A DNA stretch of 21,724 bases from UHGV virus genome UHGV-0132790, one strand, 5' to 3'. This DNA is from a virus. The notes beneath the pieces were generated by a model. That model was given only the letters and a program-made list of their open reading frames with translations, searched no databases and was not told the origin of the DNA. Made by a program: the position numbers and the translations under genes. Positions 1 through 6,330 of the stretch are shown in pieces; positions within the stretch are counted from its first letter, which is position 1; each line of letters opens with the position of its first letter.

Positions 1-85
1 GCCGTAATTTGTGCCACGCATCATCCCCCTGTTCGACAGCTCTCACGTCGATCCCTGTACGTTGCAGGATAATGTCCGGTGTCAT
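1..85 (-). CDS. exo: Lambda-type exonuclease (Red-alpha), 5' end only; gene continues beyond the left edge of the window
   Basis: Reverse complement of 1-85 translates [28 protein letters not shown], which I recognise as the lambda Exo N-terminus. Its ATG (85..83) overlaps the bet stop (84..82) in an ATGA arrangement. Confidence 0.85.
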
Positions 86-867
86 GCTGCTACCTTCTGC
101 TCTGTGACTTTCTGTTTCAGGAATCCAAGAACCTTCACAGCTTCAGCCTGTGTTAGTTCTGAAGATGTGTAAATGTTGCGGCGAAAAATCTGGGAACAGA
201 GCGGCAACAGGTCGTCATCCCACGTTTTTTCCATGGAAGTAAGAAGGGCGTTAATTTCCGACATGGTTTCTTCGTTAACCGGGGTGATGTCGCGTTCCGG
301 CTGACGTTCTGTAGTATATGCAGTATTTTCGACAATACGCTCGGCTTCATCCTTGTCATAGATGCCAGCAAATCCGAAGGCCAGGCGAGCACACTGAATC
401 ATGGCTTTGTGCCGTAACATCCGTTTGGGATGCGACTGCCACGGTCCGGTGATTTCTCTGCCTTCGCGGGTTTTGAATGGTGCGCGGCGACATTCATCCA
501 TCCACTCGGTAACGCAGATCGGGTGATTGCGATCTTTGCGGTAAATCCGGCATGTACAGGACTCATTGTCCTGCTCAAAGTCCATGCCATCAAACTGCTG
601 GTTTTCATTGATAATGCGGGACCAGCCATCAACGCCAACCACCGGAACGATGCCGTTCTGCTTGTCAGGGAAGGCGTAAATTTCTTTCGTCCAGGGATTA
701 AGGCCGTACTGGTTGGCGACGATCAACAATGCGATAAATTGCGCATCGCTGGCATCACCTTTAAATGCCGTCTGGCGAAGAGTGGTGATTAGTTCCTGTG
801 GGTCGACAGAATCCATGCCGACACGTTCAGCCAGCTTCCCTGCCAGCGTTGCGAGTGCTGTACTCAT
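82..867 (-). CDS. bet: Lambda Bet (Red-beta) single-strand annealing recombinase
   Basis: 261-aa translation [66 protein letters not shown]... matches lambda Bet from memory over essentially full length. ATG at 867. Confidence 0.95.
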
Positions 868-872
868 CCGTT

Positions 873-1169
873 TTATACCTCTGAATCAATATTAATTTGG
901 TGACGGGCGATGGTTTCAGCCATGTAGCGGATGTGTTCTGCCATGCGTTCCTGAAAATCGACATCGTCATCAAATGCACGGGAAATAGCTTTTTTGCTGG
1001 CCCCGTGACGTTGCAGATTATCGATGCATAGCGATTCAAACAGGTGTTGGGGCAGACCTTTTTCCAGGTCGTCTGCCAGCTCAGCTTCAGTTTCTTCACG
1101 GGCAATTTGCTGGTAGTGTCGTGCCCATGACTGCTCTTCAATGCGATCGGGGATAAGCCAGGCATTCAT
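873..1169 (-). CDS. gam: Gam, RecBCD inhibitor (98-aa short form)
   Basis: Translation ...[86 protein letters not shown] is close to lambda Gam. GGAGGT lies 8 nt upstream of the ATG, and the ATG overlaps the stop of the upstream 690-aa ORF. Confidence 0.9.
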
Positions 1170-3238
1170 GATTTATCACCTCCGAAATTTTCAAGCCTGT
1201 TGGCAATCATGATGGCGATATCAGGGATTGCTGGCGCTGTGGCTATACATGCGGGGTTGGCGCACAAACCATAGACGGCGGCAATCACGAGCTGTCTTTT
1301 CCAGTCGAGAGTTACTGGCTCAGAATTGGCGTCATCGCCGGACGTATCACTGCCTGGCTCGTTCTGAACAACGGTTTCGCCCTCCTGAGCGGTATCAACA
1401 GAGTTTTCCTGAATGATCTTCTCCTCAGTTTGTGCTGAGTCTTCTCCATCAGCGGCGTCATTTTCTCCAAAAGTTTCTGTGTAAGTGCTATCGCCCATTA
1501 CCGCACTACAGTCAGGGCAGTTACCCCCGCCAGTCTGACCACAGACGCGGCAGTTTTTTTCCAGCTCCGGTTGCGCTACTGGGGCTGGCTGTTGCTCTTC
1601 TGGCCCGTTTTGTTGCGTATCCGGGCTGTTTTGTCCCGCTTCTGGGGCAATTTGTTCCACTTTGGACTGATTCTGGTCCTCAGTGTCGCGAGCCTGGATC
1701 CCCTTAATCCACTTCGGGTCGGTTGGGGCGCTGATGCCTTCAACGAACTCCCCACGAGAGGCAGCCAGCAATTTGTCTGCATCGACAGGATTTTTGGGCG
1801 AAATGTTTTTCCTGGCTTCATGGAGTTCTGCTCTCAGTTCCTGGTATTTCGTTTCTACAGATGAGACATTTTCCAGTGATTGCGTGTCCGCATTATGTTT
1901 AACTGGAATTTCTTCCACTGATTCAGGCGCTGCCTGTTCATTAGACATTGCGTCCGATGTTTGCTGCTTTTCTTCATCGTCATGTATCTCTTCTGCTGTT
2001 CCGCGCTGCGGCATTGGGGCTGATGAGCGACCGCAGGCGATTTCCACGATTTCCGGATCCGGGTTAGAGTGATCGGTTTCGGTCAACACTTTGTTGAGAT
2101 ATTCAGTCACGCGCGCCGGGATAGCCTCAATGCCGATTGGTGCTTCTTTCACTGAAGCCACCACAATGGCGCGGGAATAATCCAGCCCACCGGGCATGGC
2201 GATGAATTTGTCACGGAAAACAGAAAAGGGCGGCTTATTCTCTGACACGATTTCTTCAACGCGTTTTGCGTGTGCTGGGTGCAGGTTATAAATATCCACA
2301 TCCATTGAACGGGCCAGAACGCCAGTGGCAATGTCTCGCGCCAGTGATGCCTGATTGTGGGTAAAGCCTTCGCCACGATCGGTAAGATTTCCGCCGCCAG
2401 CGTTAGCACCGGAAGGCGTACGAGTGATGCCTGTAACATAATTTCCTTTCTGCCATTCTTTTGCCAGCAATCCCTGATCCACATAGTCTGTTTTCATCCA
2501 GGTGGAGATGAACTTGTCGAATTCAGCCGGGCTGATGCGATGATTTGCAGAGTGGGGGAATGCTTTCCCTACAGATTCAGCCAGGCGACTAAGGTGATAG
2601 TTCGTCAGTTTATCCAGTTCATGATGCGCGGCGCGCACAGCAGTAAGCAGGCTCTGAAGGTAACTGTCCTCTGTGTCCATCTCCATACGGATCACGTTAT
2701 TGCGTTGTTCTGGTGTGGCATGATGCCGGTATTTTCCATCTTCATCTTTGCTGAATAAGAAGAGGTGAAGGAAGCGATGAGTAAGGCTCAGAGTGGCGAC
2801 GGGAATTTCACACTCAGAACAGTCATCGTCGCTGTCCGGGGATTCGCTTTTCTCCACATCATCCGGAATAGTTCCGTCCAGGTTATCGTTGTCATCGCCA
2901 GCAGTTGTGGCATCTTCACCGTTGATGTTGTCATCGAAGGGGATAGCCATCATGGTGATGCCATCGTTACCGCCTTTTTCATAGCGGTTGCAGAATTCAG
3001 TATCAAACACGCCTTCCGGTGGAAGGTCATTCACGACGGGGAAATTTACGCGAACGGGTTTTTTGAAATCATCCTCGTCGTAGCCTGCATCGTCCATGGC
3101 TGCAATGCAGCGGGAAACTGCGACAGAAAGTTTTCTGGCCTCGGTCCAGAAAAAACCGCCTTTGATGCCAAGGCGTTTTCTGACTTTATCGTTTTTTGCT
3201 TCGCAGTGTAGTGCAAAAGTCTGTTTATCAGCGCTCAT
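1166..3238 (-). CDS. Large (690 aa) acidic hypothetical protein with Cys-rich cluster; function unknown, candidate host-takeover or anti-defence factor
   Basis: Long uninterrupted ORF with ATG at 3238 and AGAGGT upstream. The stop overlaps the gam start. Contains D/E-rich tracts ([25 protein letters not shown]) and a [16 protein letters not shown] motif. No family recognised from memory. Confidence 0.6.
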
Positions 3239-3345: not shown

Positions 3346-3732
3346 TCAGTGGAAGGTTGCCTGGTTTGCTGTTTTGTGAGTTGTTTTTCCCTTTTCGTGC
3401 TGGCATTCAGGGCAGTCGCACTCAGAATTTTCTCTTGCAAACTCAAGAGCCTGTGCAAGTGTATGGATTTGTTGTGCTCCAATGTTGCTTCTGACGACTT
3501 CACATGCAGCATGAATATATGGGCTTGGTGTTTTGCCATTTAACCCACATAAAACAAAACGACTGTCCTTATATTCGTTATTTCCAACTTCTGTAAGCAC
3601 TGAAAAAGAAAATACAAAGTCGATTTTGTATTCTTTGCATATTTTACTGATGCGTTCTGCAATTTCTTCGAGTTCATTTATTGCATCAGGACTGGTTTCG
3701 GAAAATATTTCATTTTGCGCAAGTTCTTTCAT
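3346..3732 (-). CDS. Hypothetical protein (128 aa) with C-terminal CDCPEC motif
   Basis: ORF in the early-left operon orientation, AT-rich, weak SD. No recognisable family. Confidence 0.4.
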   Translation of the reverse strand: MKELAQNEIFSETSPDAINELEEIAERISKICKEYKIDFVFSFSVLTEVGNNEYKDSRFVLCGLNGKTPSPYIHAACEVVRSNIGAQQIHTLAQALEFARENSECDCPECQHEKGKTTHKTANQATFH

Positions 3733-3815
3733 TTTGATTTTTCCGTGATTGATAATTAATGCGGTTTTATTTCGGCTTGTCTGTTACAGATATGGAAGGT
3801 GTATTTTATTACTCG

Positions 3816-4034
3816 TCACAACGACGCTGCTTTTACGGGTAAGCCATCGCGCCCGATGAAAACTTTAATCATGCAGTCGGTAATGCATGTTTTTGTTGTG
3901 AAGTTACGAATATAGAGTTTTCTCTTTTCAATATTGTTTGCTGAAGCGATATATGTCCGACCTTCATGAAGAACATAATCGCCAGGCGTCACGCACTGAC
4001 GTGGTATTTCATCAGTTCCGAAGTGATGAGCAAT
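3816..4034 (-). CDS. Hypothetical small protein (about 73 aa)
   Basis: ORF in operon orientation. I chose the ATG at 4034 (MIAHHFG...) because GGAGA lies about 6 nt upstream; the ORF track starts at a GTG at 4055. Confidence 0.35.
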
Positions 4035-4210
4035 CATAATTATCTCCATTTTCACAAATGAACTTTGTTGATGCGGTGCCTGGTGCCTCCAGGTGACGTT
4101 AACCAGTTAACAACTAACGCCGGGTCAGGGGACGATGACTTTCCGTGACATCCTGTCGGTTTAACTGTTCCGCGTGCGCATAGCCGCATTCACCGCATCA
4201 CAAAATTCAC

Positions 4211-5062: not shown

Positions 5063-5776
5063 TCAGGCGGTCAGCTCTTTAAGCTTCTGAACTGCTTTAT
5101 TCATTTCATCCATACAGTCGATGAATTCGTCCAGTTTAAGCTGCATTTTTCCGGCGGCCTGAAGAATTTCAAGTTTTAAGGGCGCAAGTTTTTTGTTGAA
5201 TGCATCATCTTCCTGGCGTTTTTTCTCCGCAATTTCGGCGGCTTTCAGCAATTCTTCAGCCTGTTTTCTGAGTATTTCTGGTGAAGGTGAAACTGCTTTG
5301 AGGTTATTCATTTCAGGTTCCTGTTGTTGCAGAATTAATTTGTTGCATTCTCTGCGTGAGCGTTTCATTGCAGATTCGCACTTCTTGCAATAAATGGCTC
5401 TCCCGTCACGCTTGCTGGCATCTGAATAAAAATCATTGACTGATTTTGTCTGCCCGCATCTGGTACATAATTTTGATTGAAGGTCCTTAATGATTGTGAC
5501 GTTTCCTTCCCGTTTGGGATATCCATATTTTTTGTGGCGGAAAAAGGTTACTCCGTTACCAGAACCTTCTTTTCTGACCTTAAATACAATGATGCTTTCC
5601 CGTTTATCGATAAAATCTATGAGCTGGTTTCTCTCCTTTCCTGACAGTTCGGCAAATGTCTTAACTTTTTTAGTAACTTCCGTAAGGCGAACTCCATCAG
5701 GCATTTTTTCAACGAAGTTTTTAATCTCTGCAAGCGGACGCCATAACTTTTGCGGCAAAACTGAAGGCGTGGTCAT
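5063..5776 (-). CDS. Hypothetical protein (about 237 aa) with zinc-ribbon (CTRCG...CKKCE) and a K/E-rich probable coiled-coil C-terminus
   Basis: ORF immediately downstream of N. ATG at 5776 lies just after the N stop (TGATTGATG), suggesting coupled translation. Confidence 0.6.
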   Translation of the reverse strand: MTTPSVLPQKLWRPLAEIKNFVEKMPDGVRLTEVTKKVKTFAELSGKERNQLIDFIDKRESIIVFKVRKEGSGNGVTFFRHKKYGYPKREGNVTIIKDLQSKLCTRCGQTKSVNDFYSDASKRDGRAIYCKKCESAMKRSRRECNKLILQQQEPEMNNLKAVSPSPEILRKQAEELLKAAEIAEKKRQEDDAFNKKLAPLKLEILQAAGKMQLKLDEFIDCMDEMNKAVQKLKELTA

Positions 5777-5779
5777 CAA

Positions 5780-6163
5780 TCACCTCGCCGTCAGTTGTTT
5801 TGATTTCCGGTAGCCTGCCGCGTAAATGGCTACGTTTGGAAGACATACACCAGTTTCTGGTTGCTTATGTCCAAACTCATTCGCGTACACAATGGCTGCT
5901 CGCTCCAGATTGCGTCTGTATTCTTTCTGTTGCCAGATCACGTCCTGTGCCATGAACTTAATTGGCTTAGCGTCTTCTATGCGCTCAGGCGTTTCGTGAG
6001 TACCTTTAGCCTGAATCTGCGCTCTGCTTAGAGTAGGGCGGTGTAATACTTCTGAACTTATTGCTTCTTCGCGGGCCAGTACGCAGTTAGCTAATGCCTT
6101 TGCCTTTAAACGCTCACGACGACGAGAACGTGAATTGCCTTTGAACTGAGTTCTGCGTGTCAT
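5780..6163 (-). CDS. N: N-type transcription antiterminator (non-lambda allele; resembles the N of Stx/H-19B-type phages)
   Basis: 127-aa product MTRRTQFKGNSRSRRRERLKAKALAN... has an N-terminal arginine-rich motif like lambda N (QTRRRERRAEKQ). It is the first gene downstream of pL. AGGAGG lies 6 nt upstream of the ATG at 6163. Confidence 0.8.
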   Translation of the reverse strand: MTRRTQFKGNSRSRRRERLKAKALANCVLAREEAISSEVLHRPTLSRAQIQAKGTHETPERIEDAKPIKFMAQDVIWQQKEYRRNLERAAIVYANEFGHKQPETGVCLPNVAIYAAGYRKSKQLTAR

Positions 6164-6330
6164 ATGGAACCTCCTGATGAACTTTGGTGGTGTGGTAGGT
6201 GGGAGACCCATTTCGACCTGTTTCGGCCTACTTCAATTCGGCAATAGTCCCGCAGGCCTCGCCGCTTTACGTGCGACATATTCCCGTCCATGAACCCTTC
6301 ACCACACCCCAAAGTTCACTTTGGTTATTG

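Follow-up and report, generated by a model that had tools for sequence, protein, structure and literature searches.

What is the long gene that stands directly before gam in the early-left operon of the virus genome UHGV-0132790, and what might its product do? The DNA analysed here (the window) is a stretch of 21,724 nucleotides (nt) of that genome, in which all features described below lie on the minus strand. The gene is a single open reading frame (ORF) of 690 codons at 1166..3238, beginning with ATG; a run of 690 stop-free codons would arise by chance in DNA of approximately 50% GC with a probability of (61/64)^690, or about 4e-15. An earlier reading of the letters alone (the original prediction) had described a large acidic protein with a cysteine cluster and no recognisable family, and had proposed that it acts early in host takeover or anti-defence, possibly as a DNA mimic. 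The composition was as described, with an isoelectric point (pI) of 4.58, 123 acidic (D+E) against 66 basic (K+R) residues, a net charge of -57 and 12 cysteines, including a CxxC-x7-CxxC cluster. The family, in contrast, can be recognised: the gene almost certainly encodes the non-nuclease N-terminal region of RecE (exonuclease VIII), with the nuclease replaced by a conserved two-helix tail.

A RecE-family protein without the RecE nuclease

Models from three family libraries identified the protein as the N-region of RecE. Residues 55-197 matched Pfam Exonuc_VIII (PF06630; E=2e-12, 47.8 bits against a cut-off of 25 bits), residues 1-688 matched positions 1-618 of the 883 in PHROG 607 (E=3e-257), and residues 1-637 aligned to positions 1-598 of the 877 in the NCBIfam exodeoxyribonuclease VIII equivalog PRK09709 with 738.5 bits. 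The last of these scores falls under the equivalog cut-off of 1269 bits because the final third of the model, its C-terminus, has no counterpart in our protein. Individual RecE proteins gave the same picture by BLASTP. Identity was 83% to the 1048-residue RecE of E. coli 7_11_88A (residues 1-611 against RecE 1-584), 60% to the RecE of Rac-SA53, also of 1048 residues (51-601 against 43-579), and 52% to the 866-residue RecE of the K-12 Rac prophage (58-601 against 50-555). The end points of these alignments place the limit of homology to full-length RecE at residue 601-611 or thereabouts, so that the shared portion comprises the N-terminal 550-600 or so residues of RecE.

The C-terminal PD-(D/E)XK nuclease of RecE (PDB 3H4R; Pfam DUF3799) is absent: full-length RecE proteins matched DUF3799 and the 690-residue protein did not. 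A search of PDB sequences with the protein returned no match, and PDB searches with the family profile and with the tail alone returned only the RecE nuclease 3H4R, through profile columns that our protein lacks, plus insignificant matches. With the nuclease replaced by a 45-residue two-helix tail, the 690-residue protein cannot be an exonuclease. Public records nevertheless list it as 'exodeoxyribonuclease VIII' or 'RecE family exodeoxyribonuclease', names that are functionally wrong, as the nuclease domain is missing.

Homology to a characterised protein is therefore clear, but it is limited to the part of RecE that lacks an assigned function and so counts only in part against the original prediction. 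The function of the RecE N-terminal region has been called unknown or unclear (PMC11611040, PMC11610958). It has been described as dispensable for the nuclease and recombination activities of RecE (PMC11611040), and also as a region that is dispensable for nuclease activity and boosts linear-linear recombination (PMC11611040, PMC11610958).

A conserved two-helix tail in place of the nuclease

The tail comprises residues 644-690 (1169..1309), with predicted helices at 646-660 and 662-683. In an AlphaFold2 model built from an alignment of 95 sequences (18 close orthologues alone gave a predicted local distance difference test score, pLDDT, of 31) residues 646-683 scored a pLDDT of 62-75. The ratio of non-synonymous to synonymous substitution rates (dN/dS) in the tail was 0.24. 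HMMER, run over 1.84 billion representative proteins, returned no more than 206 related clusters; among those of at least 450 residues approximately 22-24 end with the tail, and a phmmer search with the tail itself found about 24 clusters. These proteins come from Buttiauxella, Kluyvera, Cronobacter, Citrobacter, Lelliottia, Cedecea and Escherichia, with identities of approximately 30-48% in the other genera, and share the consensus LTYxQQLTIAALQGLCANPA-x5-DDIPxMAxxLA, in which A653, A654, G657, N661 and P662 are invariant across genera (22-24 sequences). The distant tails matched positions 582-628 of PHROG 26058 with E-values of 5e-14 and 6e-13, and the tail of our protein matched positions 586-620/633 of the same profile weakly (E=0.009). 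In a newer Pfam release the tail-class proteins fall under YdfE_N/YdfE_C (precomputed annotation). The tail profile also matched a short Serratia protein in a set of 5.8 billion proteins, for which the matches returned were fragments. By this pattern of sequence conservation, the tail forms a separate conserved domain.

Several other explanations of the tail were tried and set aside. An origin from lambda sequence, either kil or a long Gam N-terminus read in another frame, was rejected: the DNA resembles lambda only from the gam ATG onwards. A transmembrane anchor was considered on the strength of a maximum 19-residue Kyte-Doolittle score of 1.75 in the tail of the 690-residue protein, and rejected because the tails of distant homologues (QQLTIAALQGLCANPAYRGDFDDLP) are polar. 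The idea that lambda Exo or Bet docks on the tail was weakened by distant tail-class loci that have no recombinase and by some E. coli-clade loci that carry a Sak4-like ATPase where bet-exo would stand. The likeness of 'DFDDLP', found in some homologues, to the C-terminal tip of SSB was dropped, as our protein has APAIPDIA at this place.

Selection on the gene and its distribution

The original prediction had left room for a fusion artefact of several genes, and a further possibility is that the gene is a decaying recE remnant, produced by recombination between a Rac-like early region and a lambda red region and read through like a pseudogene, without a function. The gene order lends this some colour: upstream it is Rac-like, with KilR and a gene at the racC position, downstream it is lambda-like (gam-bet-exo), and homology to lambda starts exactly at the gam ATG. 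We surveyed related prophages, covering E. coli genomes, Shiga toxin (Stx) phages and tail-class loci in IMG/VR. Orthologues were uninterrupted at 663-700 residues and 77-99% identity in many genomes, which excludes a fusion artefact, and PF06630 was their only Pfam domain. At least 80% of the gene was present in 83 of 5,426 complete E. coli genomes. It was also found in Stx phages deposited as complete genomes, namely phiSTEC1589-Stx1c (99.7% nucleotide identity), PhiR5_2, POCJ13 and 75/02 Stx.

Across seven orthologues, with dS up to 0.65, dN/dS was 0.32 overall (Nei-Gojobori), and the folded parts and the tail (0.15-0.24) differed markedly from the linkers between them (0.46-0.76). On these substitution patterns the folded parts are under purifying selection and the gene is not a decaying fragment. 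Together with an ORF kept intact at this level of divergence, its carriage by Stx phages and a tail conserved in other genera, they contradict the remnant explanation, which we regard as extremely improbable.

Predicted domain layout and the location of the charge

Structure prediction by domain, as the original prediction had suggested, yielded two confident AlphaFold2 domains joined to the remaining elements by disordered linkers. The first is an alpha/beta domain at residues 1-100 (2939..3238; pLDDT 93-98 for residues 11-100, dN/dS 0.19). It is followed by acidic disordered linker 1 at residues 101-144 (2807..2938; net charge -17, pLDDT 45-56, dN/dS 0.56), the length and sequence of which vary in the family alignment. 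The second confident domain, an all-alpha core at residues 145-415 (1994..2806), is the most conserved folded part of the RecE N-region (pLDDT 86-98, dN/dS 0.15-0.20). Acidic linker 2 at residues 416-458 (1865..1993; net charge -11, pLDDT 43-63, dN/dS 0.76) leads to a helix at 459-477 and a short family-wide motif at residues 495-510 (1709..1756; pLDDT 76-80); the helix and motif region as a whole, residues 459-510, had a pLDDT of 63-83, and dN/dS in the motif region was 0.20. A disordered linker 3 rich in Q, P and E occupies residues 512-560 (1559..1705; charge -7, pLDDT 36-43, dN/dS 0.46). Beyond it lie the cysteine cluster at residues 563-577 (1508..1552), a putative zinc knuckle formed by Cys563, Cys566, Cys574 and Cys577 (pLDDT 54-69 for residues 561-580), and acidic linker 4 at residues 581-643 (1310..1498; net charge -17, pLDDT 30-42, dN/dS 0.57), which connects to the tail. 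RecE shares the N-terminal domain, core, motif, Cys4 knuckle and acidic linkers with the 690-residue protein.

No element of the family is better conserved than the motif, RGE[FY]V.GISDP.DPKW, which is nearly identical in proteins that are only 25-40% identical overall. It was found in every architecture class described below, at variable positions relative to the core, and in the phage collection it was confined to RecE-family genes (47 records, including Gifsy-1/2 and Klebsiella phages). Its placement within disordered sequence suggests a peptide on which a conserved partner may dock.

The four cysteines of the putative knuckle are conserved in at least 90% of the close orthologues and are also found in E. 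coli-type RecE and in the DEDDh relatives described below; the cluster is absent from distant tail-class proteins. One 663-residue relative (P0117; L014 3001..4992) carries an in-frame deletion of the whole CxxC-x7-CxxC but retains all other parts, and its gene still overlaps gam; the cluster is therefore dispensable in at least one lineage.

The position of the charge bears on the proposal that the protein is an anti-defence or anti-restriction polyanionic DNA mimic, whose stretches rich in D and E would, early in infection, fill the sites at which host nucleases or restriction enzymes bind DNA. Like the mimics lambda Gam, T7 Ocr and ArdA, it is highly negatively charged and expected early, and it is encoded in the early-left operon beside gam itself; acidity is moreover a trait of the whole family, and some related loci carry a ral or Lar-like gene in the same operon. 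However, -52 of the net charge of -57 sits in the four linkers, which are predicted to be disordered and are the fastest-evolving parts of the protein, and the predicted folded domains are near neutral (net charges -1, -4 and 0). Known DNA mimics such as Ocr, ArdA and Gam present rigid acidic surfaces, unlike the predicted arrangement here, and a comparison of sequence and fold with solved mimics, these three included, revealed no resemblance. In relatives, furthermore, the same module is covalently joined to exonucleases, for which a role in DNA processing is a better fit than inhibition of nucleases. PADLOC defence models matched neither the 690-residue protein, nor relatives from three other classes, nor three upstream ORFs. 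The mimic proposal is thus weakened and in our view unlikely to be right; what speaks for an anti-defence or host-takeover role is the position of the gene, and the role otherwise lacks support.

The core raises a different possibility, namely that it is an unrecognised enzyme or ligand-binding domain to which the C-terminal modules are accessory. It comprises 270 highly conserved residues with motifs such as ETDH.NPDPEIV.IACGR, its dN/dS is as low as 0.15, and its confidently predicted fold is without relatives: a fold search with the two confident AlphaFold domains found no structural relatives in the libraries searched. Against an enzyme, a Gly-rich TDR loop is missing in the distant proteins P0216, P0218, P0223 and P0240, and the few invariant or near-invariant residues in the distant alignment are almost all non-polar and lie largely in the tail, with no obvious catalytic residue among them. 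The reported dispensability of the N-terminal region for the activities of RecE (PMC11611040) points the same way, and we consider a catalytic or ligand-binding core highly unlikely.

A modular family with interchangeable C-termini

The N-module of RecE (the region shared with the 690-residue protein) was found joined to (a) the PD-(D/E)XK nuclease, (b) a DEDDh nuclease, (c) the two-helix tail or (d) other C-termini without a Pfam match, and the all-alpha core is present in each of the first three architectures. Acidity is common to all classes (pI 4.4-5.5, net charge -15 to -75), and every match that carried a source name came from the Enterobacteriaceae.

Class (a) is RecE itself, followed by recT (L002, L004). 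Genes for RecE and for the 690-residue protein alike lie at the distal end of an early-left operon downstream of kilR, and differ in what comes next, which is recT after recE and gam-bet-exo in the present case. Class (b) consists of 814-823-residue proteins ending in an Rv2179c-like DEDDh 3'-5' exonuclease (PF16473), found in prophages of the bovine E. coli strain 113 and of O157:H7 EDL933. These 'exonuclease' proteins share the N-module with our protein at 58% identity over residues 1-628 (814-residue form) and 38% over residues 313-638 (EDL933), and also the motif, the Cys4 knuckle and the operon position next to xis/int. They differ in having the PF16473 nuclease and no tail, and in the absence of gam or an annealase gene nearby (L005, L006).

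Class (c) contains, besides the E. coli-type proteins, tail-class proteins of other Enterobacteriaceae (PHROG 26058; 473-736 residues) with the same N-terminal domain, core and linkers, a tail of the form QQLxxAAxxGLCANP...P.MA..LA and no nuclease. Genes for the distant members are last or second-last in an operon that precedes xis-int. Overall identity of these proteins to ours is only 22-30%; most of them carry an extra helical domain where ours has the Cys4 knuckle, and none has gam or a recombinase gene downstream.

Four further observations on the family were made in passing. The ydfE gene of the K-12 Qin prophage (L028 7079..7999) is an IS2-truncated N-terminal remnant of class (b), resembling the 823-residue 'exonuclease' of EDL933; its relationship to the family is remote (23% identity to P0180, E=3e-12). 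In one 703-residue protein (P0124) the N-module runs straight into a RecT domain (residues 528-678 by Pfam), apparently through a deletion that removed the nuclease domain and joined recE to recT. A distant 824-residue tail-class ORF (L106 5001..7037) has a weak match to PAPS-reductase (PF01507, E=5e-6) at residues 332-388 of its translated stretch, perhaps a further module inserted in this family. In prophages of Buttiauxella and Cedecea a gene for an Rrf2-like winged-helix protein of 114-121 residues directly follows the tail-class gene and precedes xis-int (L016 7449..7814, with a 4-nt overlap; L023 6139..6483).

A cassette with gam

The early-left placement given in the original prediction holds. 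Downstream of the 690-codon gene lie gam (873..1169; 98 residues, Pfam Gam E=5e-65) and bet (82..867; 261 residues, lambda Red-beta type, Pfam RecT family); exo falls past the edge of the window, and in the 99.7% identical phage phiSTEC1589-Stx1c Exo is intact. Upstream are a KilR homologue (3816..4055), 90% identical to KilR of K-12, and an ORF for the N antiterminator (5780..6211; Pfam N_peptide match at residues 17-143), with two further ORFs of no assigned function between them. It was likewise confirmed that the stop codon runs into the start of gam, as an ATGA at 1166..1169 in which the TGA occupies 1168..1166 and the gam ATG 1169..1167. A GGAGG Shine-Dalgarno sequence for gam lies within the 690-codon ORF, at 1183..1179.

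The order KilR ... 690-residue gene - gam - bet - exo - ... int recurred in six E. coli-type loci and in that of P0121. A scan of IMG/VR provided 80 tail-class loci, and wherever a complete tail-class ORF of at least 49% identity and its downstream DNA were recovered, gam was the very next gene. In the E. coli clade the two genes overlap by 4 nt in 37 loci and by 23 nt in 14 (51 in total). What follows gam is variable: in four loci (L071 5167..6264, L076, L082 and L093) an AAA_24 (Sak4-like) ATPase, of 365 residues in L071, replaces bet-exo, and in two others (L073 and L083) neither bet nor exo follows and only integrase-like ORFs score downstream. The pair formed by the RecE N-module gene and gam is thus kept while the recombinase module is swapped downstream. 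Nucleotide divergence of the gene co-varies with that of gam (r=0.74), with bet and exo remaining 91-99% identical.

These observations admit an explanation tied to Gam and applying to the E. coli clade, in which the protein would be a co-factor or stabiliser of Gam, or would counter host sensing of RecBCD inhibition, or in which its translation would set the expression of gam by coupling. The overlap in 51 loci, the survival of the pair through exchange or full loss of the recombinase, and the shared divergence of the two genes all speak for it. On the other side, distant tail-class genes stand without gam, gam has a strong Shine-Dalgarno sequence of its own, many phages, lambda among them, use gam with no such protein, and linkage can explain the adjacency. 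We think a function bound to Gam in this way unlikely.

A possible adaptor role

Taken as a whole, the best explanation, in our view slightly more likely than not, is that the gene encodes a nuclease-less protein of the RecE/YdfE family of enterobacterial lambdoid prophages that would act as a non-catalytic adaptor. The identity and architecture are almost certain; the adaptor mechanism itself is tentative and, taken alone, less likely than not. It was arrived at because folded modules and a docking-type peptide are strung on polyanionic spacers, and because in RecE the nuclease works without the N-module while linear-linear recombination gains from it (PMC11611040, PMC11610958). On this model the protein would be a non-catalytic adaptor or scaffold: conserved host or phage partners would be bound by the folded N-module, the motif and the tail, and the polyanionic linkers would serve as flexible spacers. 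The adaptor would serve an early-left module for DNA ends, made up of Gam and whichever recombinase follows, in a role matching that which the N-module would have in cis in full-length RecE.

A wider form of the adaptor model would regard the N-module (N-terminal domain, novel all-alpha core and docking motif) as a conserved adaptor that prophages combine, via acidic disordered joints, with interchangeable effectors, be it a PD-(D/E)XK exonuclease, a DEDDh exonuclease or just the helical tail, and the effector-less form of the E. coli clade as an obligate partner of Gam. Such a partner might help Gam, for instance, or guard against hosts that sense the inhibition of RecBCD, and would not be an accessory of recombination. 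We put this forward as speculation and think it unlikely.

Several points weigh against the adaptor explanation. A conserved core of 270 residues without detectable fold relatives could hide an enzymatic activity. The pairwise dN/dS values and the correlation between the divergence of the gene and that of gam are not phylogenetically independent. The adjacency of gam could reflect linkage alone, since overlapping genes leave no viable recombination joint. Finally, the distant tail-class loci (L016-L023, L094-L096, L098 and L101-L109; 28-42% identity) lie directly before xis-int and have no gam, bet, exo or recT, from which it follows that the core function is independent of a neighbouring recombinase or Gam. 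As these relatives need no neighbouring recombinase, the partner of an adaptor would probably be a host component or DNA ends.

Other genes of the early-left operon

Several further features of the operon were recorded. The N ORF measures 143 residues from its first ATG, compared with 90-127 residues called in related loci, and its true start may be internal. Directly downstream of N is a 238-residue ORF (5063..5779; PHROG 2539) that occupies the same position in related loci (237-239 residues); its residues 100-190 or so are rich in cysteine and weakly resemble (E 1e-9 to 1e-6) the Lar-like restriction-alleviation protein, endonuclease VII and HNH families. At the racC position, directly upstream of the RecE-like gene, is a 128-residue ORF (3346..3732; PHROG 2016, no Pfam match) with CDCPEC in its C-terminus, which is kept at 128-130 residues in most class (c) loci and is absent in L014. 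Between kil and this ORF, phiSTEC1589-Stx1c (L001 5253..5426) and one other locus (L008) carry a ydaE-like gene (Rtr1/RPAP2, zinc-binding); it is missing at approximately 3733..3815 of the window, where the interval is about 167 nt shorter, and in several other class (c) loci.

Implications for the RecE family

The RecE family is known, as is the gene itself, which is held in databases under a misleading enzyme name. Literature searches on RecE N-terminal function, on YdfE and on an anti-defence role found no functional data. In the literature searched, the N-module as an autonomous gene, the conserved tail domain of RecE N-module proteins, the shuffling of the N-module among alternative effector domains and the effector-less form locked to gam all appear undescribed.

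Recognition of the gene corrects a widespread annotation error ('exodeoxyribonuclease VIII') and reveals that in Shiga-toxin phages it is tightly paired with gam as a two-gene cassette. Its wider interest comes from direct cloning, where the linear-linear recombination that is exploited is driven by full-length RecE and not by the nuclease domain alone. The 690-residue gene is a natural separation-of-function allele, an N-module minus the nuclease that is kept by selection and encoded by Stx phages, and the N-module can accordingly be studied by expression, deletion or supply in trans with no nuclease activity to confuse the outcome. The tail and the near-invariant motif offer concrete handles for finding partners. 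The finding reveals no new mechanism; what it does is open the RecE N-terminal region to direct tests of its role.

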